In this document: positions 5,104 to 31,592 of the stretch, piece by piece
Numbering within the stretch: the first letter of the stretch is position 1
Layout of the letters: every line of letters starts with the position of its first letter
From: a virus
DNA length: 64,000 nt
IMG/VR virus record: IMGVR_UViG_3300028569_000031
Location: 14,025 to 78,024 of that record
Strand: one strand, 5' to 3'
Position numbers and translations under genes: made by a program
Notes under the pieces: generated by a model
Seen by the model: only the letters and a program-made list of their open reading frames with translations
Database searches by the model: none
Told to the model about the DNA's origin: nothing

Positions 5104-7368
5104 ATGAGCGATAGCAAGTCAGCGTTAGATTCTATCCTCAAATCCGTTGTTAATCGAGACGGAGGTGGCTCTGCGGACACCATGTTGGTGAATGCTCACC
5201 TTGCCCAGATGAAAATGTTTGGGATTCGTCAAGGCGTGGAATTTTATCCTGACCAGGATAATTTTGGTACACAGCGATTTGATTTTGTTCAACAAGTAAT
5301 TCGTTTTAATAAACTTGATGCAAGGTTGGATTCCATTTGGGATCGGTTCCTTTCATTTGGAAAAGGCTTATTCTATATAAGGCCTACTAAAAAAACTTAT
5401 CGTTTATATTGGTTTGATAAAGATGCTTACCGTTCATACTACAGCGCCGATGGTGAACTAGAAGAAGTAGTAATTATCTACCCTTATAAAGTAAAGTCGA
5501 ATCGTGGTTTTTCCGGGGTAGGTTTATCAACAGATAAACGTTACATGAGATTAAGAATTACAGCAACTGAAATTGAAGAGTATCATAGCGAACAAGAATT
5601 AAATTTTGAGTCAACATTAGAGTTTGCAACGTTAGGAAAAAAGACAGTTGTAAACACAATGCAATTTATCCCTTGCGTTGAGGTTTTTAATAATCCAGAT
5701 GCTTTTGGTACTGAGGGTAGTGGGGAATTTGAGTGGTTGAGTAATCAAATTATTGCTCACGATGAGATGGTAAAAAATATCAGAGCTAATCTTTCTTTCT
5801 TTGGAAATCCAACTTTACTGTCTTCTCGCCCCAAACAAGACATTATTGAACAAAAAGATGGAGATGTTTCTCAAAGGCCAAGTATTGCAAGCCAATCTGG
5901 TTTCCAATCTGATTTTCCGCTTTCGAGTTCTACTTATCGCCAAGACAATGTAACCAGGCAAAATCCTGGATACATTGGAAAACCTGGCACTGGTATGCGG
6001 GTACCGCGTGTTATTGCAAACCTTGAGCCAACAGATCGTGTTGGTTTTATTACCCCTAATGCAATAAGCACTGACCAAGCAAGATACGCAGAACAGTTGA
6101 GATCTGAGATACGCCTAGCTCTTGGCGGTATTGACGACTTAAGTATTACAAACGTAACTGCTACTGAAATTAAATCAGCTTATGGTCGTGTAAGTGCGAC
6201 AGCTAAGAAAAAATGTTTACAAATTTATACGTATGGAATTTGTAGATGTTTTGAATTAATGATTTTTCAAGAGGAGCAAATATTCAGAAAAACACTTGCT
6301 TTTAGTTCTGGCTTAAAATATCCTGATCCACCTGAAGATTTAGAAGATCCGAAACTTGAAGCAAAGTATGAGAAAGCAAAAGATAAGTATGAACAGGGTT
6401 TACAAGCTGCAATTGATAATGCAATACAAACAAAAACAATACCGCCAGGGGTCTTAGGTCTTGCTCCAGATGGGGATAGAACTGTTTGTTGGCGATGGAT
6501 GGGTCCTGTTTATGAAGACACCGCTCAAGATAAACTTAACCAATCTATCTTTACACGTAACCTACAGGAATTAGGTGTTGATAGCATTGAAGCACTGAAG
6601 TATTTGTTCCCTTCAAAAACGGACGACGAAATCGCAGGCATGCTCTCCGGTTTCCCGTTCCGCATGGTGGGTGAAGTACAGAGGGCGATGTCTACTTTCA
6701 TTGACCTGGTTAACCAGCAAATGAGGACCCCGCATCCGCAGCAGCCGGATATACCGATGGCTGCGGACCCACGTCTTGATCTTACACCGTTCCTTTACCG
6801 AACTCTCGAAAGCCTACAAAAAGAGGTAACCTATGCAGGCCGATACCGCAATGCCGACCCAATCGGCACCCCAAGTATCTCAGACCCAACCGATCAGCTA
6901 CGCGGCTCCAGTTTCTCAAACAGCAGCCTACGCGCCAACGGTTTCAACAACGTCCCAATGGGTGGCGCCTTACCAGCAGGTAACGGCCCCAGCACCGCAA
7001 ATGCAGGCCCAGATGGGCGTCCCCCAGACGCAATACAGCCCTACAGCGTCGTACCCCCAAGCTTACCAGGCGTCCCCACAATCGCCCCAGTCGGAGAATC
7101 CTTACAAGGAGGCATTCAACCGGGTAGTAGGACTCCTGAGTTCGCCGGTCCAATTCCCGTTCCAGGGTCAACAGTCTCAAACGAGCCCTCAGTACGCCCC
7201 GGCCAACTACAGTTCCCAAGCGGCTCCCCAGTACAGCAACGCGGGGACGCAGACCTATACGCCTGGGATCAACAGCAACCAGGGTTACTCCAACGGTTAT
7301 TCCCAAACTTCTCAGGAACTGACCAGGGAGCAGCTCCAAGCAAACGGAGTAAGCGAAGCAAGTCTTAG
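5104..7368 (+). CDS. portal protein with long Pro/Gly-rich C-terminal extension
   Basis: large gene after terL; portal-like IPCVEVFNNPDAFGTEGSGEF segment; last 178 codons overlap the next gene. Confidence 0.75.
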   Translation: MSDSKSALDSILKSVVNRDGGGSADTMLVNAHLAQMKMFGIRQGVEFYPDQDNFGTQRFDFVQQVIRFNKLDARLDSIWDRFLSFGKGLFYIRPTKKTYRLYWFDKDAYRSYYSADGELEEVVIIYPYKVKSNRGFSGVGLSTDKRYMRLRITATEIEEYHSEQELNFESTLEFATLGKKTVVNTMQFIPCVEVFNNPDAFGTEGSGEFEWLSNQIIAHDEMVKNIRANLSFFGNPTLLSSRPKQDIIEQKDGDVSQRPSIASQSGFQSDFPLSSSTYRQDNVTRQNPGYIGKPGTGMRVPRVIANLEPTDRVGFITPNAISTDQARYAEQLRSEIRLALGGIDDLSITNVTATEIKSAYGRVSATAKKKCLQIYTYGICRCFELMIFQEEQIFRKTLAFSSGLKYPDPPEDLEDPKLEAKYEKAKDKYEQGLQAAIDNAIQTKTIPPGVLGLAPDGDRTVCWRWMGPVYEDTAQDKLNQSIFTRNLQELGVDSIEALKYLFPSKTDDEIAGMLSGFPFRMVGEVQRAMSTFIDLVNQQMRTPHPQQPDIPMAADPRLDLTPFLYRTLESLQKEVTYAGRYRNADPIGTPSISDPTDQLRGSSFSNSSLRANGFNNVPMGGALPAGNGPSTANAGPDGRPPDAIQPYSVVPPSLPGVPTIAPVGESLQGGIQPGSRTPEFAGPIPVPGSTVSNEPSVRPGQLQFPSGSPVQQRGDADLYAWDQQQPGLLQRLFPNFSGTDQGAAPSKRSKRSKS

Positions 7369-22149: not shown

Positions 22150-22980
22150 ATGCGTTATATAGGAAACACAACATTAACACCTGGTATAAGTTACCAACGT
22201 ATTGATAATATTGGGTCTAGTTTTAACGGCGTTACAACGTCTTTTCCATTATTAGTTTCTGGTATTTCACCTGTCCCATTTCCATCTAACCCACAACAGT
22301 GTTTAATTTCTGTTAACGGTGTAATTCAAAAGCCAGACCCAACCGGTGCAGCTGGCTTTAATTTAGTGGGTACGAACATAGTATTTGCCTCTGCTCCGAC
22401 AGGAGGTTGGGCTTTCTTCGGGGTTGTTCTTGCTGGGTCTGATTTTGTTGCGGTTGGGGCCAGTTTCCCAGATGGTTCAAATAGTGCACCGAGTATTACA
22501 TTTGATAATGCACCAACCACTGGTTTTTATCGCAGCGGCTCAAATGAAATTAGTGTTACTACTGGAGGTGTTCAACGTGCTGTTTTTGACGCTAACGGTA
22601 ATCTTGCTATAGGAGCATCTGTAGGTAATACAAAAATATATGTTCAAGGCACCGGAGCAATGAACATTGCAACTTTAACCGATGGGTCTACAATTACTCC
22701 TGATTTTACAGTTGCCAATAACTTTACAGTCACTTTGACCGGAACACCTCGAACACTTGCTAACCCAACTGGCATGACTGTTGGGCAGAGTGGTTTGATT
22801 TATATTCTGCAGGATGCAACTGGAAACAGGATTTTAAGTTACGGCAGCCATTGGAAATTCCCTGGCGGCCAATCGTTTAAAAATTTAACTACTACAGCAA
22901 ACGCAGTTGACTTAATTGGTTATACTGTACGTACAAGTACAAGCATTGCTTGTCAACTCGTAAACAACCTTACCCAATAA
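22150..22980 (+). CDS. tail fibre adaptor protein
   Basis: ISVNGVIQKP, DGSNSAPSITF; C-terminal ITPDF..QDATGNR domain. Confidence 0.7.
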   Translation: MRYIGNTTLTPGISYQRIDNIGSSFNGVTTSFPLLVSGISPVPFPSNPQQCLISVNGVIQKPDPTGAAGFNLVGTNIVFASAPTGGWAFFGVVLAGSDFVAVGASFPDGSNSAPSITFDNAPTTGFYRSGSNEISVTTGGVQRAVFDANGNLAIGASVGNTKIYVQGTGAMNIATLTDGSTITPDFTVANNFTVTLTGTPRTLANPTGMTVGQSGLIYILQDATGNRILSYGSHWKFPGGQSFKNLTTTANAVDLIGYTVRTSTSIACQLVNNLTQ

Positions 22981-22982
22981 TT

Positions 22983-25448
22983 ATGTCTATTCCAGGTTCT
23001 ACCAACCCCCTTTTATTATTTGGTGACCCCACTGGCGGACAGTACCAAATACAACGTTCGCTCAGATTCAATAGTAGTGACAGTGCCTACTTGTCTAAAA
23101 CCTTCTCATCTTCAGCGACAAGTTCTAGAAAACTTACTTATTCAACTTGGGTAAAACGAGCGGCATTAGATGTTGGATCGGTCCAACACTTTGGACTGTC
23201 TGCTGCAGTGTCTGGAAGCTCAAGAGACGCTATTAGATTTTCTGGCGACAGTATTCAAGTTTATTTCAATGAAGGAGCCTCTGGAATCGTAACTACAAAC
23301 GCAGTATTTCGTGATCTTTCCGCTTGGTATCATATTGTTATTTCAATTGACACCACTAACTCTACCCCCGCTGATCGGGTCATAATATATGTCAACGGTA
23401 GCCGTCAGTCTACTTCTGGAACACAACCCTCTCAGAATTACGACTTTACCGGTTTTCTAGTATCGGGAAAACAGCAAAACATCGGCAGAAATCCGGCACC
23501 CGATTATTATGTAAACGCCTACTTGGCCGATGTATTCCTAATCGACGGCCAGGCATTAACCCCCAGCAGTTTCACAGAAGTCAGTGCCACTACTGGGCAA
23601 CTCATACCCAAGGCATACACCGGCACATTTGGTACGAATGGATTCTGGCTGAAGTTCAGCGATAACTCCGCTCTAACCAGTGGCAGCAATGTTGGGGTCG
23701 GCAAAGATTACTCAGGTAATGCAAATTACTTTAATACTTCTGGCCTCAGCGTTACTGCTGGTGCTGGGAATGACAGCCTCGTAGACACCCCGACTTCTTA
23801 CGGCACCGATACCTACGTGGGTGGTGAGGTGAGGGGGAATTACTGCACGTGGAATCCGCTTGATCAAAAAAACTCCAATACTTTTTCTAATGGCAATCTT
23901 GATTGCGTGATTGCTGGGGCAGGAGAAATCTTTGGTACGCAAGGTGTAAGCAGTGGTAAGTGGTATTTTGAAATTGTTGGCACTGCTACAGCGGATTTCC
24001 TTGGTAGGTATGCAATTATTATGGGAGTTTGCAATTTATCAGTTACGCAAACAAGTCGATCTAGTGCAGGGTCGTGGTTATTCTATACCTATCTGGGGAC
24101 AAAAATTTCAAACGGAGTGGAAACTTCTTACGGAAACCAAGCAGCATTAAACGCAGTTGTTGGTGTTGCAGTTGATCTCGACAACTCAAAAATATGGTTT
24201 AGTGTTAATAATACTTGGCAAGCATCAGGAGATCCGGCGGCAGGGACAAACGCTGCGTTTACCAACGTATCTGGAGTTATTTCTCCTGTTGTATTCAATG
24301 GTAGCTCAAACTCTACAAATACTTTCGTATTAAATACAGGTTCTCGCGCATTTGCCTACACCGCCCCCAGCGGCTTCAAGGCACTATGCGATACCAACCT
24401 CGGCGCCCCATTAGTCGCCAAGCCTTCCACTGTATTCGATGTTATTACTTATACCGGCACAGGATCTAGCCTTACGCTGCCAAATGGTAGTAGTACTCCT
24501 ACCAGCATTTCATTTACACCAGATTTTGCATGGTTGAAAGGTCGCTCAGGTGCAACAAACCATGCGCTGTATGACGCAGTCCGTGGTGTGCAAAAAGATT
24601 TAGTTAGCAACAGTACGTCTGCTGAAACAACGGAAACCACCGGGTTAACTGCGTTTGGAACTAATACCTTTACTGTTGGCAGTTTGGCAAAACTGAATAC
24701 TAGTAGTTCTACATATGTTGCCTGGGCTTGGAATGCTGGCGGCACAACAGATCCTTCCAACACAGCAGGCTCCATCACTAGTCAGGTGAGGGCGAATGTT
24801 AGTGCTGGGTTTAGCGTTGTTGGATGGACTTCAAACGGCACCTTTGGCATTGAAACAACGGGTCATGGGTTAGGCGTATCACCGGATTTGATCATTGTAA
24901 AAAACAGAGACTCCGGTACTGATCCATGGCAAGTATTTCATTCTTCTTTTAGCAATACAGCCTCCGATTATCTGTTCTTGAATACAACTGCGGCGAAGGC
25001 TACGTCTGGCGCAACTATTTGGACCAGAAGTTCAACAACGTTTGGTTATAGGCAGTCTTCTATTTTCACCAATGGACAAAAAGGAATTGCTTACTGCTTC
25101 GCCCCAGTAGTCGGGTACTCTTCTTTCGGCAGCTACACCGGCAATGGCAGCGCAGATGGGCCGTTTGTGTATACCGGATTTAGGCCGAGGTGGATTATGG
25201 TGAAACGTACCGATTCTGCAATCCAGTGGACAATTCTGGACACATCTAGAAGCCCCAACAACGTCGCTGATGCTCGCCTTTTCCCAAACCTAGCTCAGGC
25301 AGAGACGGTCAACGGTGACGGCAACACCGATCTGCTTTCAAACGGTTTTAAGCCACGCAACATTGATAGCTCCTTTAACACAAACGGTGGCACTTACATA
25401 TTTGCAGCCTTTGCAGAAAACCCATTCCAATACGCCCGTGCCAGGTGA
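22983..25448 (+). CDS. long tail fibre / receptor-binding protein (LamG-like, SPRY-like and C-terminal domains)
   Basis: RSLRFN, WYHIV, GKWYFE, APSGFKAL, AFAENPFQYARAR; ATG 22983 preferred as start. Confidence 0.8.
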   Translation: MSIPGSTNPLLLFGDPTGGQYQIQRSLRFNSSDSAYLSKTFSSSATSSRKLTYSTWVKRAALDVGSVQHFGLSAAVSGSSRDAIRFSGDSIQVYFNEGASGIVTTNAVFRDLSAWYHIVISIDTTNSTPADRVIIYVNGSRQSTSGTQPSQNYDFTGFLVSGKQQNIGRNPAPDYYVNAYLADVFLIDGQALTPSSFTEVSATTGQLIPKAYTGTFGTNGFWLKFSDNSALTSGSNVGVGKDYSGNANYFNTSGLSVTAGAGNDSLVDTPTSYGTDTYVGGEVRGNYCTWNPLDQKNSNTFSNGNLDCVIAGAGEIFGTQGVSSGKWYFEIVGTATADFLGRYAIIMGVCNLSVTQTSRSSAGSWLFYTYLGTKISNGVETSYGNQAALNAVVGVAVDLDNSKIWFSVNNTWQASGDPAAGTNAAFTNVSGVISPVVFNGSSNSTNTFVLNTGSRAFAYTAPSGFKALCDTNLGAPLVAKPSTVFDVITYTGTGSSLTLPNGSSTPTSISFTPDFAWLKGRSGATNHALYDAVRGVQKDLVSNSTSAETTETTGLTAFGTNTFTVGSLAKLNTSSSTYVAWAWNAGGTTDPSNTAGSITSQVRANVSAGFSVVGWTSNGTFGIETTGHGLGVSPDLIIVKNRDSGTDPWQVFHSSFSNTASDYLFLNTTAAKATSGATIWTRSSTTFGYRQSSIFTNGQKGIAYCFAPVVGYSSFGSYTGNGSADGPFVYTGFRPRWIMVKRTDSAIQWTILDTSRSPNNVADARLFPNLAQAETVNGDGNTDLLSNGFKPRNIDSSFNTNGGTYIFAAFAENPFQYARAR

Positions 25449-25478
25449 GTAGTGAACACGGATACGATGCTGGGGGCA

Positions 25479-25673
25479 ATGACACGTTTCTTCTCTGACC
25501 TTACCAAAAGCATCAGCGAAAAACGCCGCGAACAAATCGAACGCCGCAAAGCCGAGCTTCGGCAACGATTTTCTTCCAAAACCATCCATCGCCTTGCCGA
25601 TAACAAACTTTACAAACTCACAGTCGATGGCTGGGTCGAGGTCCAGCCCAGACTCGATTCAGACAGGGCTTGA
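25479..25673 (+). CDS. small hypothetical protein (cassette-like)
   Basis: begins just after the first TAGT site; C-ending codon usage unlike core genes. Confidence 0.5.
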   Translation: MTRFFSDLTKSISEKRREQIERRKAELRQRFSSKTIHRLADNKLYKLTVDGWVEVQPRLDSDRA

Positions 25674-25854
25674 CACAAAAGTTTAGAACGCCCCACTTTT
25701 AACCCCGTGGAAATCGACGGGTTTGCTGTTTGCAAATAGCGAACAGTCAGGTACTTTTTCATGGATTCACAAATTTGCAAAATCGTGAAAAAGCCTTAAC
25801 ATGATTAGGCAGCGAGTATCAGCTCCTGCTGCCGGCCACAATCCTCTGGAGATC

Positions 25855-26160
25855 ATGACCACCGAACTGTACGAGATCCGTGACTACGCATACGAGCCAG
25901 GATGGGTTCATTACGTCACGGAAACAACCACTTCTATTGCAGACTCTTGGACAACTGCATTACCTCTTGACTCAGAAAATATTGAGAAGTTTGGTGCAGC
26001 AACACCGCCAAAAAGATTTAAAACAAAAGCAGAAGCCAAACCTTATCTTGATGCACTAAAAGCAGCACGTCTAGAAAATTGGGCAAAAGACGGCTATTTA
26101 GATAAAGCACGTGGGCGTTGTCGTCCTGCCTGGAAGATCTATGCTGCTAAAGCCTCCTAG
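25855..26160 (+). CDS. hypothetical protein (cassette-like)
   Basis: GGAG SD before ATG 25855; stop codon TAG forms the start of a TAGT site. Confidence 0.6.
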   Translation: MTTELYEIRDYAYEPGWVHYVTETTTSIADSWTTALPLDSENIEKFGAATPPKRFKTKAEAKPYLDALKAARLENWAKDGYLDKARGRCRPAWKIYAAKAS

Positions 26161-26413
26161 TCCTTGGCTCTACTCACCCGTGGAAGCCAAAGGGCTACCG
26201 ATCAAGTACTGTGCACATACTGCACATTGCAACTCTCTGGAAATTCCGGACAGTTCAGGTGTGCCTAGTAGTCCCGCACACTAGTCCGGTCAACTACGAT
26301 TGGGCTGGGTTGTAATTTTCTAGTACTTATTCAAAGAAAGCGGCTCAATTTTGAATAAGCCTCAATCTTATTCAAGTTTGACGCGGTAAAATAAGGCTGC
26401 TTATCACCAATCC

Positions 26414-26671
26414 ATGACTAACCCCGCTCCAGTAGCAACTATTCTTACAGTTTCTATCCACCGAACAAGTACGAATCCTGTCCATGGCCGTGGGGTCCTA
26501 CAGATTTCTATTGACGACGAAGGCGCAGGAGGTTTTATAAAAATACGTGAATTAGGTGATGATCTAGATAATTGCGTGCGCCTGGATGCTGATGAACTGG
26601 ATTTGGTTTTCCAGGAAGCCAAAAAACTTATTGATCAGAAAACACTGCTTCCTTTTAAGGATCTGATTTAG
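26414..26671 (+). CDS. hypothetical phage protein
   Basis: ISIDDEGAGGFIKI motif; TAAAAT upstream. Confidence 0.65.
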   Translation: MTNPAPVATILTVSIHRTSTNPVHGRGVLQISIDDEGAGGFIKIRELGDDLDNCVRLDADELDLVFQEAKKLIDQKTLLPFKDLI

Positions 26672-26675
26672 TAAC

Positions 26676-26987
26676 ATGACACCACAACAAAACGACGTAC
26701 TCTTAGCTGCTGTTGATCTGATCAACGGTGGAATGGACATGGAAGAAGCATTGGGTTGTTACCGAGTTATTGCTCAATACGTTGTGAAAACAATTCCACC
26801 TGATTCTGTAGAGAACAAGTACAATCTATTAAAACCGTTACCTGATCTTGAAAGGCAAGAAATAATGTGGCGCGTTGCTGTTACGTCCGCACTGGAAACA
26901 GGAGAGGCTCCATATGAACTTTTTGCTAATCGTCTTCATAGCTATCTTGCTGGTAAAAACCTCATGGAGATAGAGCAGCTATCTTGA
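26676..26987 (+). CDS. hypothetical protein
   Basis: follows previous ORF by 4 nt. Confidence 0.55.
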   Translation: MTPQQNDVLLAAVDLINGGMDMEEALGCYRVIAQYVVKTIPPDSVENKYNLLKPLPDLERQEIMWRVAVTSALETGEAPYELFANRLHSYLAGKNLMEIEQLS

Positions 26988-27077
26988 GAATCCTAGATTG
27001 TTTGAAACATCTAATCACTATATATATATATGATATAAAAGAGATTGTTTAACAATTTTTATGGACATCTTACCAAT

Positions 27078-27103
27078 AAAAAAGACCCTCCGAAGAAGGT
27101 CTT
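27078..27103 (-). terminator. psbA rho-independent terminator
   Basis: minus strand AAGACCTTC-TTCG-GAGGGTCTT plus T run (cUUCGg loop). Confidence 0.85.
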
Positions 27104-27123
27104 AAGAACTGTTAATTTATTTA

Positions 27124-28203
27124 TCAACCAATAGAAGGTGCAGTAAGAGCAACAGAAGTTAACTCAGAAGCAGCAAGATCTAAAGGAAAGTTATGAGCAT
27201 TTCTTTCATGCATTACTTCTAAACCAAGTCCAGCACGGTTCAGAATATCCGCCCAAGTTGGTACAACACGGTTCTGACTGTCAACAATTGACTGGTTAAA
27301 ATTAAATCCATTAAGATTAAACGCCATTGTAGAAACACCTAGAGCAGTGAACCAGATGCCAACAACCGGCCAAGCAGCTAAGAAAAAGTGAAGTGAACGA
27401 CTGTTGTTGAACGAAGCATACTGGAAAATAAGTCTTCCAAAGTACCCGTGAGCAGCAACAATGTTGTAGGTCTCTTCTTCTTGGCCAAACTTATAGCCGT
27501 AGTTATGCGATTCATTCTCTGTGGTTTCACGAACCAAGCTGGAGGTAACCAATGAACCGTGCATTGCACTAAACAAGCTGCCACCAAACACACCTGCTAC
27601 GCCGAGCATGTGGAAGGGGTGCATAAGAATGTTATGCTCAGCTTGGAACACCAACATGTAGTTGAATGTACCAGAGATACCCAATGGCATCGCATCAGAA
27701 AAAGAACCTTGACCGAAAGGATATACAAGGAATACAGCAGTCGCAGCAGCAACAGGTGCTGAGTAAGCAACGCAGATCCAAGGGCGCATTCCTAATCGAT
27801 AGCTAAGTTCCCATTCGCGTCCCATGTAAGCAAAGATGCCAATGAGGAAGTGGAATACGACGAGTTGGAACGGCCCGCCGTTGTAGAGCCATTCATCAAG
27901 GGAAGCAGCTTCCCAAATTGGATAGAAATGTAATCCGATTGCATTTGAGGAGGGGACAACCGCTCCTGAAATAATGTTGTTTCCATAAAGTAAAGAGCCA
28001 GATACAGGCTCGCGGATCCCATCTATATCGACAGGTGGAGCACCAATAAAAGCTATGGTGAAGCAGACGGTAGCAGCAAGAAGTGTTGGAATCATTAGGA
28101 CTCCAAACCAACCAACGTATATCCGATTTTCAGTTGAGGTTACCCAACGGCAAAATTGTTGCCATAGGTTCGTTTGTTCTTGTAAGGCAATTGAAGCAGT
28201 CAC
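27124..28203 (-). CDS. psbA: photosystem II D1 protein (E130 form)
   Basis: unmistakable D1 sequence ([42 protein letters not shown]); GTG start. Confidence 0.99.
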
Positions 28204-28290
28204 TTTTAAAAGGGTAGGTATGAGTCCGGGGGACGAACGGGTTGTGTTATTCCCACATCACCCTCAGATGCGGGTATTAGAGATGATTTA
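28204..28290 (-). ncRNA. PhotoRC-II-like cis-regulatory RNA in the psbA leader
   Basis: minus strand CTCTAATA-CCCGCATC-TGAGGGT-GATGTGGG-AATA hairpin with GAGGG loop and a downstream CCCCC; resembles the cyanophage psbA leader motif from memory. Confidence 0.7.
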
Positions 28291-28313
28291 CTTCTGATGA
28301 TCTCGGTTTCAGA

Positions 28314-28364
28314 AGTGTAAGGAATTGTAAAGTTTTATCTTCATTCCCTGACTTATTCAGTATA
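28314..28364 (-). promoter_or_regulatory. psbA promoter with HLR1-like (RpaB) direct repeat
   Basis: -10 TATACT at 28364-28359; TTTACAAT-TC-CTTACACT at 28331-28314. Confidence 0.55.
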
Positions 28365-28474
28365 GCTTGTTTAAACACAAATTGTGGGGGTGACCGAAGA
28401 ACTTAAGTGGCTAAGAGTTCCTAAAGTGTACTAAAAAAACAAGTCTATAATTAGTAAAGAAAGGCTCAATTCAG

Positions 28475-29269
28475 TTGGCTGTTAATCCTAACAATTTTTT
28501 AAAAGAATACCTTGATCCAATCAAAGAGTCAGGGGAAGGTACGTTTGCTTATAATCCGAACTTGGAGTACGAAGATACGGCAGGACTGTTCGGAAGCATT
28601 TTACAAAAAGCACAACAATTTGTTAATAGCGCGAATAAATTAGGAACCGATGTTTACAGTGGCGCTGGTAGAGCTTATGAAAATGTTGATAAGACAGTAT
28701 TTAAAGGGTCACTTCCCTATGGTTCAGATTATGTTAAACCAAGTAGAAGCATTCCGGCAATTTTCAACGATGTCTTAGATAAAGGATTAATTCCAGTTCC
28801 AACAACAGATAGAAACACCTGGGCAGCAGCCACTGGCGTCAAGGCCTACGCTGGTCCATTGGGTAAACCATTTAGAGTAATGGATAATCCAGATGCGGCA
28901 AAGTATAGGTATGAAACCCTTGGCTACGCTCAACCATCAAACAATGATATTAATTATGGATTAAGTACCACCGGAAAATATAGACAAGGGTATGAAAAAT
29001 TAAGGGATGAGCCTGCAAATATGGCAATTGGCCAATATTCAGCAACCCCAGATCGTTTTGGTTTTGTCAATGTAACAGATAATTACAATACAAACAACCC
29101 TCTTAGCTGGTATTTTAATAAAGTTGTTGAAGGTTCTCCAAGTGAGAAAGGTTTTTACGCAGTTGCCGGGGCGGGTAAGGCCTTGGAAAACATTGGGTGG
29201 TTAAATCAACGACCACTGGGTTCAAGTGTCCCCATGGGATTTGTGAATCCCACAAACCGAGACAACTGA
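28475..29269 (+). CDS. hypothetical protein, possibly virion cargo
   Basis: TATAAT promoter upstream, TTG start, N-terminal NFLKEYL. Confidence 0.55.
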   Translation: MAVNPNNFLKEYLDPIKESGEGTFAYNPNLEYEDTAGLFGSILQKAQQFVNSANKLGTDVYSGAGRAYENVDKTVFKGSLPYGSDYVKPSRSIPAIFNDVLDKGLIPVPTTDRNTWAAATGVKAYAGPLGKPFRVMDNPDAAKYRYETLGYAQPSNNDINYGLSTTGKYRQGYEKLRDEPANMAIGQYSATPDRFGFVNVTDNYNTNNPLSWYFNKVVEGSPSEKGFYAVAGAGKALENIGWLNQRPLGSSVPMGFVNPTNRDN

Positions 29270-29458
29270 AATCACAACTCCAAGTAAAATCCACGTTCCG
29301 TCCGCAAAAACATTGATTCTATGTCGTAACTCCGCATGGTTATTCTGTGTTTCATATGCTTTATTTAACTGATACATATCAGTAAGCCCCCAGTAAGATG
29401 ACACGGTGGCTGCACCAAGACCAAATATAAAGGAACAAGAAAGAAAAAAGTTTTTCAT
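29222..29458 (-). CDS. small two-TM membrane protein
   Basis: two hydrophobic segments. Confidence 0.55.
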   Translation of the reverse strand: MKNFFLSCSFIFGLGAATVSSYWGLTDMYQLNKAYETQNNHAELRHRINVFADGTWILLGVVISVVSVCGIHKSHGDT

Positions 29459-29590
29459 ATGCCTTGTGAAAATTTGAGAAGGTTTGTGGATAGGATTGAG
29501 ATTAGATCTAAGCAGTTTAACGTCATGTTTAGGACGATTATTTAAAATAAAAACAAAACACTTGTTACAATTGATTTAACAGTTGCTTGC

Positions 29591-29848
29591 GTGGTCATGC
29601 CTAACTGGCTCTGGCGTTCAATACTTGCTACAGCGGCTTCAATCATGTTGCTTACTGTCGCTCAGTGGGGGGCCTGTAGATTTTATGTTTTTCCAACAGC
29701 ATGGCCTTGGTACGCTAAGTATGTAGGCACTCCTGAAGGTAAAGCTATCGAAGCTCAACCAACCTGTGCAGACAGTGATAGCAGAGCCATAACATCTATG
29801 ATGGCTGTGTTAACAACATTAATAAGCCTTAGTCGTAAGGCTGATTAA
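29591..29848 (+). CDS. small membrane protein
   Basis: two hydrophobic segments; TACAAT upstream. Confidence 0.55.
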   Translation: MVMPNWLWRSILATAASIMLLTVAQWGACRFYVFPTAWPWYAKYVGTPEGKAIEAQPTCADSDSRAITSMMAVLTTLISLSRKAD

Positions 29849-29868
29849 CTCAATTTAATAAGCATGCA

Positions 29869-30051
29869 ATGAAAGTTAAAACCCGTGTAGTTCTTGAAGA
29901 TGCTATAGATAGGGGTATTCGAGATGGTTATCGTCGTGCCCATAAACACGTTGAAAATCCAGAAGAAGACTCAATTCACCTGGCAATAGAAGACGCTATC
30001 TGGCATGAACTTGATAAAGTTTTTTGTTTTGATGATGAATACACTACTTAA
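29869..30051 (+). CDS. hypothetical phage protein
   Basis: GYRRAHKHVENP motif typical of cyanophage small ORFs. Confidence 0.65.
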   Translation: MKVKTRVVLEDAIDRGIRDGYRRAHKHVENPEEDSIHLAIEDAIWHELDKVFCFDDEYTT

Positions 30052-30056
30052 TGGTT

Positions 30057-30908
30057 TTATAAAACAGGCATTTCATACTCCTGAGTAACGTTTACATAAT
30101 GCTTCCAAATAACTTCTGAACTGTTACCTGCCCAGTTTGCAACTTGTGCTACCGGAATCTGAGCTTCAATCCACCGGCTAATTGCCGTATGCCGCAAGTC
30201 ATACGGTCTATACCTATTTTGAATAAGTTTTTCTTCATGCAACTCTTTCATTCGATCATAAAAATAACTTTGAAACGCATACCTATTCCAAGGGAAAATA
30301 TATTCACTAGTTTTTGATACGGCTTCCATGATTTCTTGGCACCTATTATTTAAAGGAACCCACCGTTTCCTATTTGTTTTTGTTGAATTTTTATACCCAT
30401 GAGTAAGAGTATAGTTACTATGTACAAGGATTTTATTTTCTTTTATATCTTCCCATTTAAGTGCACGCACTTCGCCAGTACGCATTGCGGTTTGCAACAT
30501 AAACTCAGAATAGAATGCCCAGTTAGCCCCGTTACGGGCTTGTTTTGATCCAAGTGCTTTCAGAACTAACTCTGTTTCTTGCCGTGGAATTACAATAATA
30601 TCTACATCTTCCTGCGGTGGTTTTGGCATTTTAAAACTAACAATTGGGTTCTTATCAATTAACCTAATATCTTCACTAGATGCCCAACGATATAACGATT
30701 TTATGTACATTGTTACACGCCGACTAGATTTAACAGGTTTTTGACTTAATATCCATGTTAATATTTTTCTTCCTTCATTCAAATCTGTAATTGGACATTT
30801 GTTTAACCAGTTACCCACCTGCCTGTAGTCTGCAACCAGACTGGTCGGACATAGTGCAATGGCTCTTTCAGTTTTGAATTGCTCCCAGGCTTCAAGTAGT
30901 GTTGTCAT
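30057..30908 (-). CDS. int: tyrosine recombinase/integrase
   Basis: TAMRTGEVRALKW, STKT, YDLRHTAIS, AGNS..IWKHY catalytic motifs; short, with no arm-binding domain. Confidence 0.9.
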   Translation of the reverse strand: MTTLLEAWEQFKTERAIALCPTSLVADYRQVGNWLNKCPITDLNEGRKILTWILSQKPVKSSRRVTMYIKSLYRWASSEDIRLIDKNPIVSFKMPKPPQEDVDIIVIPRQETELVLKALGSKQARNGANWAFYSEFMLQTAMRTGEVRALKWEDIKENKILVHSNYTLTHGYKNSTKTNRKRWVPLNNRCQEIMEAVSKTSEYIFPWNRYAFQSYFYDRMKELHEEKLIQNRYRPYDLRHTAISRWIEAQIPVAQVANWAGNSSEVIWKHYVNVTQEYEMPVL

Positions 30909-31025
30909 TGGTGGGAATTTTGTTGGCCTAGCTTAGCATAAAATCGGTTAATGTGCCAGGATGGCTTCGGTTTCCTACACCACAGGGGCTAAGAAGGCTT
31001 ACAATGATTAAAAACCTGAAGCATA

Positions 31026-31592
31026 ATGTTTCTTTTAAACGGTAAGCCTATATCTCCAGATTCTCCGTTTGTGACGCCGGATGGGACCCAGTACCCTTCA
31101 AACTGGATCCGATTTGCTTCCCCTGAAGACCGAAAAGCAATTGGAATTACTGAAGTTCCTGATCCCCCTTACTATGATCAACGGTTTTATTGGGCACCAG
31201 GAATACCTAAAGACCACGACCAGTTGGTTACTCAGTGGGTGGATCAAACCAGGCAGACTGCTAATACTTTAATTAGCCCTACGGATTGGATGATTGTGCG
31301 TTCTGTTGATAACGGGAAAGAAACAGATCCAGTCATTAAAACCTGGAGAGAAAACATACGTACTACATCAGGTCTTAAGGTTTCAAAAATTAAAGCTACA
31401 AAAACAACAAATGATTTAGCTAATTTTGTTACTTCACCTGAGTATTCTTCCTGGCCTGTGCAGGGTGCTAGTGACAACTTAGTTACGTCAGATACAGTGA
31501 TTGATTCTGGTACAACGGATTACGTTACCAATTCTGGTGGTATAGATTATCTTTCATTTAATTCAGGCACAACGACTTCTGGTATAGTTTAG
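31026..31592 (+). CDS. tail fibre assembly/partner protein
   Basis: DGTQYPSNW..AIGITEV..YDQRFYW..TDWMIVR..WRENIR. Confidence 0.75.
   Translation: MFLLNGKPISPDSPFVTPDGTQYPSNWIRFASPEDRKAIGITEVPDPPYYDQRFYWAPGIPKDHDQLVTQWVDQTRQTANTLISPTDWMIVRSVDNGKETDPVIKTWRENIRTTSGLKVSKIKATKTTNDLANFVTSPEYSSWPVQGASDNLVTSDTVIDSGTTDYVTNSGGIDYLSFNSGTTTSGIV

Follow-up and report, generated by a model that had tools for sequence, protein, structure and literature searches.

A compact bipartite motif at small-gene junctions in an accessory island of lake cyanophages

We analyzed a 64,000-nucleotide stretch of viral DNA (hereafter the window), which comprises bases 14025-78024 of a 78-kb IMG/VR viral contig with a completeness estimate of 91%, and focused on a set of short sites located downstream of its tail-fibre gene. 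Comparison with related phages resolved these sites into a 17-bp motif, AGTAGTC-N5-CACTA, which occurs in a single polarity at the stop/start junctions of small genes, is embedded between flanks that are unrelated from one phage to the next, and precisely bounds two gene indels between otherwise near-identical genomes. Based on these findings, we propose that this conserved junction motif also offers a short stretch of homology at which modules are shuffled, a reading to which we give a probability of about 0.5.

An accessory island beside the tail-fibre gene

The window belongs to an uncultured freshwater cyanophage related to S-EIV1. The large terminase shares 66% identity with its counterpart in S-EIVl, a Synechococcus phage from polar freshwater, and the public runs containing the stretch are mostly lake or freshwater metagenomes. 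The terminase and structural genes are encoded on the + strand, and the - strand carries a replication module with primase-helicase, family A polymerase, single-stranded DNA-binding protein and ThyX. The tail-fibre gene (22950..25448, +; SPRY and DUF7483, with Pfam and PHROG matches) ends in TGA at 25446-48 and is followed by small open reading frames (ORFs), psbA on the - strand, more small ORFs, a tyrosine recombinase gene on the - strand, ORF 31026 and an endolysin gene.

The first small ORF (25482..25673, +), the start of which was picked by homology, is 86.6% identical at the nucleotide level to the related contig L035 over 25491-25676. It is followed by an accessory ORF of 101 aa with no family match (ORF 25855, 25855..26160, +; 86% amino acid identity to L002, the closest full-length relative) and by two further small accessory ORFs, 26414-26671 and 26676-26987 (26414..26987, +), common to L002, L020 and L023. 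The island cargo also includes psbA and its leader (27124..28330, -), in which the PhotoRC-II RNA motif lies directly upstream of the gene (28239-28330, -; 52.8 bits against a gathering score of 39). In L002, psbA is absent and the integrase directly follows the homologue of ORF 26676. Contigs from RNA libraries cover 26412-28357, a coverage that is not proof of transcription.

The right edge of this region is the partner gene of the fibre, ORF 31026 (31026..31592, +), which follows the fibre stop in most fibre-anchored relatives. Among the 48 relatives fetched with the fibre C-terminal domain, most have the homologue of ORF 31026 after the fibre stop, at a distance of 3-90 nt in the majority of cases. 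For 37 of these relatives, 3 kb or more of sequence lies downstream of the fibre; 36 of the 37 showed no match there to the window integrase, and the same 36 showed no + strand copy of the array form (C..C) of the motif described below downstream of the fibre. Since most relatives have the partner gene right after the fibre, with neither integrase nor array motif, positions 25449-31025 are an inserted accessory island of 5.5 kb between the tail-fibre gene and its partner, and the sites treated here occupy its left part.

In cyanophages, psbA and other host-derived genes reside in islands beside tail-fibre genes, together with many uncharacterized small genes, and gene entry and exit at these places is mostly ascribed to rare illegitimate recombination. 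We compared empty and occupied sites at the fibre end and set this approach aside: homology to island-free relatives stops after GTAGTGAACACG, but immediately past the fibre-end site the island-free genomes are likewise divergent among themselves, so site-specific insertion is not proven. Two side observations concern the island edges. The last fibre codons, GTGCCAGG (25438-25445), recur at 30953-30960, 73 nt before ORF 31026, an 8-bp repeat that is possibly due to chance. In L002, an ORF at 5440-5922, absent from the window, sits between the fibre gene and a conserved promoter module; by eye it looks like an endonuclease of the HNH type carrying an AP2-like domain, and a search of NCBIfam models returned nothing.

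Four sites within the window

An earlier note on this DNA had described four sites with conserved inverted arms around a variable core, of the general form TAGT-N7-ACTA, as delimiters of the small ORFs. All four strings are indeed present. Site 1 (S1), GTAGT-GAACACG-GATAC (25449-25465, +), comes directly after the fibre stop. Site 2 (S2), CTAGT-CCTTGGC-TCTAC (26157-26173, +), holds in its TAG (26158-60) the stop codon of ORF 25855-26160. Sites 3 and 4 (S3, 26269-26283, +; S4, 26282-26296, +) are exact TAGT-N7-ACTA strings sharing TA. The arms are complementary in S3 and S4, but the description does not extend to S2, with one mismatch, or to S1, with two (GATA for ACTA).

The local enrichment that the note called for is not found either. 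Within the window, exact TAGT-N7-ACTA was seen 2 times against 1.38 expected, the same pattern with at most one mismatch was seen 29 times against 33.4 expected, and a cluster of at least three within 150 nt was reached in 28 of 300 dinucleotide shuffles (9%). These figures, together with the non-complementary right arm of S1, speak for the view that the four sites arose by chance and have no function. As shown below, this view is contradicted for S3, S2 and S1 by comparative data.

A refined motif in related phages

S3 with the two bases to its left (26267-26283) reads AGTAGTC-CCGCA-CACTA, and exact copies of this 17-mer, AGTAGTCCCGCACACTA, are present in 10 further viral contigs, where one or both flanks are unrelated. 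In mismatched matches, the changes fall in the central five bases, which gives the motif AGTAGTC-N5-CACTA, a version of TAGT-N7-ACTA in which both inner positions are C. A scan of related loci, de-duplicated to 356 kb and including six that had been retrieved by means of the 17-mer, gave 22 exact matches in forward orientation and none in reverse. Gaps of 3, 4, 6 or 7 in place of 5 gave no copies in the same 356 kb, and 30 arm-shuffled controls gave 0-2 matches. Across about 28 distinct contexts, information content is confined to the 12 arm positions and falls to background level right outside the 17 nt. Each genome holds 1-3 copies. No motif above control was found in S-EIVl. Thus, a recurrent motif with conserved arms and a variable core at small-gene boundaries, as the note had it, is genuine in related phages, and it is specific to this group of lake cyanophages.

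The position of the motif relative to genes is equally regular. All exact copies lie on the coding strand. In most copies of the motif, the TAG of the left arm is the stop codon of the upstream ORF, although this genome uses TAG less often than any other stop (10/98). In other copies the stop falls a few bases before the motif, or a TAA or TAG arises at the right arm. The window offers an example of the latter in a possible 34-aa ORF ending SSPAH* inside the motif (26180..26284, +); its differences from L035 are mostly synonymous, so coding is favoured. In about a dozen contexts the next ATG begins 0-5 nt past CACTA; at other copies, a CGGTCAAC box or a hairpin, CCCGTGGAAATCGACGG, comes next.

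An extended form, AGTAGTS-N5-SACTA, has C..C at the S positions in the small-gene array and G..G at the fibre stop, and the fibre-end site is the same motif with G..G replacing C..C. S1 is a decayed copy of this fibre-end site, AGTAGTG-AACAC-GACTA, in which the left arm and spacer are kept and the right arm is GATA. At the same position, the island-free contigs L071, L079 and L080 have a perfect TAGT-N7-ACTA, and L072, L083 and L110 have the right arm TCTA. S2, as CCTAGTC-CTTGG-CTCTA (26155..26173), is a degenerate junction motif homologous to ACTAGAC-TTTGA-CACTA in L002 and AGTAGTC-TTTGA-CACTA in L008; its CTCTA variant followed by a CCCGTGGAA hairpin is also found in L033. S4 (26280..26296) forms a second, overlapping unit, ACTAGTC-CGGTC-AACTA, which does not conform to the scheme of conserved arms and variable core: its "spacer" is the conserved box CGGTCAAC, which also follows the motif in L056, L023, L025 and L022, and it is the right arm that differs among them.

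With S3 identical to the 17-mer of 10 related contigs, S2 and S1 having positional homologues in relatives, and the refined motif far above chance there, we consider a chance origin of the whole set very improbable; only the resemblance of S4 to an arm-bearing site might be due to it.

Between S2 and S3 we also noted 41 nt (26210-26250) that match L002 at 97.6% identity, against 77-88% for the neighbouring genes. This stretch lies within a 61-aa ORF in L002 (..CAYTAHCNSLEIP..) and within the possible 34-aa ORF in the window, and contains the palindromes TGTGCA-N5-TGCACA and CTGGAAATTCCGG.

The regularity of spacing and position raises the possibility that the motif is primarily an expression signal, with recombination as a by-product. 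It might be an operator in the style of 434 repressor, bound by a dimeric phage DNA-binding protein through short arms one helical turn apart around a variable centre, or an mRNA element at junctions acting in translation re-initiation, processing or translational repression. The strict spacing, the strict coding-strand orientation and the fixed relation to stop and start codons are all in line with this, as are the presence of the motif at a backbone junction, that of fibre and partner gene, in island-free genomes and the richness of the surrounding DNA in promoter, operator and leader modules. The arms also vary independently, with no compensatory changes, which we read as favouring sequence-specific recognition over pairing. 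On the other hand, no candidate binding protein was identified, the motif has no Shine-Dalgarno-like content, it is present in only 1-3 copies per genome, several copies precede a terminator hairpin or non-coding DNA, and the stretch has no match in Rfam. If only the arms were under selection, it would also be unexplained why the identical 17-mer, including the variable centre, is found between unrelated flanks. We regard a primary role in expression as a tentative alternative, possible but not favoured.

Some known signals were considered and rejected. An RNA hairpin formed by the arms would have a stem of only 4 bp, and arm variants are uncompensated. Rfam returned only PhotoRC-II at psbA and nothing in 25449-26420. 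A T7-type phage promoter came into question because CACTA is similar to the promoter cores that single-subunit RNA polymerases use; it was dropped, as the 20 large window ORFs scanned include no match to such a polymerase and the centre varies within one genome. A cyanobacterial LexA or NtcA box fits neither in spacing nor in half-sites.

Mosaic junctions and gene indels at the motif

Among 48 pairs of contexts with an identical 17-mer, neither flank is alike in 37, only the left in 6 and only the right in 3, and identity stops 0-3 nt from the motif edges. Two classes of left flank and two classes of right flank were found in all four combinations.

We also followed gene gain and loss between contigs at least 93% identical, and found 8 independent indel or replacement events. 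Two of these are bounded on both sides by motif copies. L003 and L005 are 99% identical around a 314-bp gene indel between two copies with the centres ATTCC and ACTTG, and the crossover falls inside GTAGTCA. L029 and L057 differ by a 631-bp gene indel between copies with the centres CCGCA and TGAAC. Where L029 has the gene, L057 is left with a fused pair, AGTAGTC-CCGCA-CACTAATC-TGAAC-CTCTA, of the same architecture as S3/S4 in the window; the tandem pair, which the note had likened to an empty cassette, indeed looks like the product of a lost gene. A third event, the replacement between L008 and L009, ends at a motif copy on one side. In a fourth, between L023 and L025, the deletion spans 373 bp and is bounded by GTCAACT repeats (7 nt), one of them in an S4-type box. 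The other four events do not involve the motif, and include an 892-bp indel that removes just the integrase gene between L029 and L057, which are otherwise near-identical. Breakpoints therefore use the motif far more often than its share of about 1% of the DNA predicts. The expectation that ORFs are gained and lost exactly at the sites is borne out by L003/L005 and L029/L057, but most other indel breakpoints fall elsewhere.

Public assemblies gave further joints. This comparison used assembled contigs placed on the window, in which uncovered parts carry no meaning. In the source sample, a joint 25727->26200 at a depth of 44, against about 500, is flanked by imperfect direct CCCGTGGAA repeats and removes the unit of promoter, ORF 25855 and hairpin, which is thus absent from minority variants. 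Other joints are 28404->29541 and 26684->26792. A joint 26157->26269 in the lake run X2, with shared TAGTCC, is weakly supported by one short contig with 24 nt on one side. The GTCAACT deletion in L023/L025 and the loss of the ORF 25855 unit at CCCGTGGAA repeats indicate that recombinase-independent deletion between short repeats is active here, and such deletion also takes place elsewhere without the motif.

Promoter module, hairpins and the ORF 25855 unit

The ORF 25855 unit is preceded by a terminator-like hairpin, CCCGTGGAAATCGACGGG (25704..25721, +), the left of the repeats that flank it; the same element is present in L023 and L033. Next comes a regulatory stretch (25754..25853, +) with a palindrome over a promoter-like site, a leader hairpin at 25808-25833 and GGAG before the ATG at 25855. 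The leader and ribosome-binding site (RBS) are conserved in 8 other contigs (L002-L009), before different genes. The module of promoter/operator, leader hairpin and RBS (...GGCAGCGAGT..CTCCTGCC..GGCCACAATCCYCTRGAGATCATG) is found once per contig, e.g., at 5960-6055 in L008, and its upstream operator varies: some genomes have the palindrome AACCATTTTGTTGAC..CCAAAATGGT, the window has another palindrome, and L023 has three direct repeats, CTCCCCTCGATCCA. Taken together, ORF 25855 with its own predicted promoter and hairpin has the makeup of a moron-like unit.

After the ORF stop there is an RNA stem-loop (26158..26197, +) with a degenerate CCCGTGGAA repeat at 26178-26186; this hairpin element recurs in L023 and L033. 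The note had presented it as a long hairpin comparable to integron attC sites. As + strand RNA, the fold of 26155-26200 is real (-20.9 kcal/mol, z -4.0), but when it is folded as single-stranded DNA, neither strand does better than shuffled sequence (z -1.2 and +0.1). A second terminator-like RNA hairpin (26281..26308, +), with four G-U pairs and a T-rich tail, overlaps S4. The hairpins beside S2 and S4 exceed shuffled expectation only when folded as + strand RNA, and we read them as terminator-like stem-loops of the transcript, not as recombination substrates.

The tyrosine recombinase and its possible link to the motif

The recombinase gene (30057..30908, -; PF00589 2e-17, PHROG 1) encodes 283 aa without an arm-binding domain. 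It lies 3.8 kb from the sites in convergent orientation to the small-gene array, and psbA is among the genes that separate the two. Among NCBIfam models it scores only 22-32 bits with XerD/XerC/XerA-like entries, far under their cut-offs, and it has no match to an IntI-specific model at E <= 0.01 (the label of XerA_Arch mentions integron integrase). A sequence search against solved structures in the PDB found no relative at E <= 0.01. Read by eye, box II is YDLRHT instead of HxLRH, and the presumed nucleophile is Tyr273. The protein is 67% identical to the integrase of Synechococcus phage S-LBS1, for which lysogeny is not demonstrated and no attachment site is validated (PMC6157547). In that phage, a siphovirus unrelated to this group, a motif-like TAGTAGTCCCCTTCACAT is located at the fibre stop, 86 nt before the integrase gene.

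The integrase gene shifts place and orientation among relatives (L002, L030, L031, L037, L046, L034, L040, L057); it may precede or follow the fibre partner gene, or face the fibre directly in convergent orientation. Its stop codon lies in a 12-bp palindrome, GTTTTATAAAAC (30050-30075), perfect in L030 and partly kept in L022 and L046. A 15-nt inverted repeat that exactly flanks the gene (30035-49 / 30894-908) is not conserved in relatives without ORF 29869, and we treated it as chance.

The earlier note had proposed that this recombinase drives the system. In this scenario, the motif would be the core site of the enzyme, with TAGT/ACTA arms around a 7-bp overlap, at which gene units are inserted, excised and swapped; possibly the whole island moved at the fibre-end site, and integrase-less arrays would be relics served in trans. 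Several observations fit: the dyad and spacer have the geometry of a core site, the motif has sharp edges and its 17-mers are found between unrelated flanks, and gene indels fall exactly between direct copies. The array abuts the integrase 3' end within 0-320 bp in many relatives (L028/29, L036, L038, L041, L045 and L048), and in L034 and L040 the integrase stop codon is inside the fibre-end site. The motif-like sequence beside the S-LBS1 enzyme, the lack of known lysogeny or a validated attP for that integrase, and the mobility of the integrase gene among relatives point in the same direction.

The association of motif and recombinase is, however, inconsistent. The genome G001, 91% complete, carries the motif twice but lacks any PF00589 gene, and island-free relatives have the G..G fibre-end site (AGTAGTG-AACAC-GACTA and near variants) with no integrase within up to 10 kb downstream; both argue for independence of the motif from the integrase. 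Conversely, G004 has the integrase and no good motif copy. The integrase itself is gained and lost without motif ends, and most other breakpoints fall elsewhere. The conserved arms measure only 4-7 bp, and the two exact indels joined unlike spacers (ATTCC/ACTTG and CCGCA/TGAAC), which classical tyrosine recombination does not tolerate. The divergent box II also weighs against this role. Consequently, the proposal that the recombinase drives the system is not supported, and we judge its action on the motif unlikely.

Searches for a host attachment site were also negative. The 17-mer plus RTC was unmatched in one genome per species from 185,579 prokaryote species, and the bare 17-mer had 5 matches, none of them cyanobacterial, in unrelated taxa, as chance would give. 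No tRNA or tmRNA is present in the window.

If the recombinase did act on the motif, this would be a new kind of cassette system and would explain the presence of an integrase without known lysogeny. The 283-aa enzyme might then use the 17-bp TAGT-N7-ACTA sites to take up, excise and exchange gene units, as well as the whole psbA island at the fibre-end site, as a phage cassette platform with double-stranded mini-sites common to two unrelated freshwater cyanophage lineages, S-EIV1-like and S-LBS1-like; the odds on such a platform are likewise long.

The junction motif as a proposed short-homology handle

We consider it about as probable as all the alternatives together (about 0.5) that the conserved stop/start junction motif has a second role as a site of short homology at which modules are shuffled. 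The motif supplies the stop of the upstream gene and is usually found 0-5 nt before the next start codon. Directly repeated at gene junctions and shared between co-infecting relatives, it could serve as a handle for short-homology exchange, by which genes would be deleted, inserted or exchanged through homology- or microhomology-dependent recombination with a crossover in or just after TAGTC. We infer that general or phage recombination does the joining, not a dedicated enzyme, and that the arms are kept both as stop/start context and as recombination handle. Their conservation could be owed to recombination itself, to a DNA-binding protein or to an mRNA function.

Several points weigh against this proposal. 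A shared arm of 7-8 bases is very short for ordinary homologous recombination, and the window yielded no recombination protein such as a single-strand annealing protein. A site-specific enzyme would likewise leave sharp edges, with unrelated DNA to the left and right. The model itself does not explain why the arms are conserved and N5 is variable, and a separate function of the arms, in expression or in protein binding, has to be assumed. Moreover, several copies of the motif have no start codon after them, and the retrieval of some loci with the 17-mer biases the counts of that allele.

These findings have implications for the understanding of gene flow among lake cyanophages, for which a portable 17-bp junction motif offers a concrete and testable route. 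The motif joins unrelated genes in different phages, and genes are lost or gained at it between near-identical genomes. It also provides a simple sequence tag for spotting such islands in viromes.

Comparison with known systems

The note had called the array integron-like. Likenesses do exist: the small genes are co-oriented, a site lies at or over the stop codon, partly complementary outer boxes surround a variable middle, units are lost exactly between sites, and arrays may exist without a nearby integrase. Nonetheless, this site set is not an integron, and of the hallmarks tested only the gene indels at sites are found. No IntI-type enzyme, with its integron-specific extra domain, is present here. 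Integron attC sites are imperfect palindromes with R''/R' cores, measure 57-141 nt and fold as single-stranded DNA, whereas the motif has 17 nt, and DNA folds around S2 and S3/S4 were no better than shuffles on both strands. The sites lack the GTTRRRY core. Integrons have attI and Pc beside a divergent integrase; here the integrase is distal and convergent, and no such layout is present. ORF 25855, moreover, has its own conserved promoter and leader.

The lox, FRT and dif sites share with the motif inverted arms around a spacer of 6-8 bp (7 bp here), the asymmetry of which gives polarity. They differ in having arms of 11-13 bp, each bound by one monomer, against 4-7 bp here, where conservation covers only AGTAGTC and CACTA and the complementary part only TAGT/ACTA. 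Their overlap is identical in both partners, while the copies joined here have unlike centres, and the motif shows no consistent co-occurrence with a recombinase.

Phage elements that foster module exchange come closer. The promoter early stem-loops (PeSLs) of T4-type phages are mobile regulatory cassettes of tens of bases, with a sigma-70 promoter and a terminator stem-loop (PMC2839356, PMC4122927). Like the motif, they are short, conserved and non-coding, and they recur between the small accessory genes of a plastic region. In both cases, close relatives differ by indels and replacements with ends at these elements, and recombination between neighbouring copies deletes the gene that lies between them. 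The 17-nt motif differs in having neither promoter nor stem-loop, in overlapping a stop and preceding a start, and in its variable centre. Promoter and hairpin modules do exist in the island, where hairpin repeats bound the ORF 25855 unit, yet they are separate elements. This unit has a promoter-like site, a leader and a terminator-like hairpin of its own and is either there or missing as a whole in the population. It resembles the morons of temperate phages, a likeness that concerns the unit only and not the junction motif.

The boundary sequences of lambdoid phages, as summarised in PMC3029335, are short, lie at gene boundaries and are proposed foci of homologous module exchange. As with these, the junctions observed here coincide with gene ends. 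The difference lies in a defined bipartite motif with fixed spacing and several centres, confined to one island and the fibre end. The motif thus shares with boundary sequences and PeSLs its repetition at gene boundaries of a plastic region, where mosaic junctions and indels coincide with it. Gene shuffling at boundary sequences is known in other phages; what is new here is the compact bipartite sequence.

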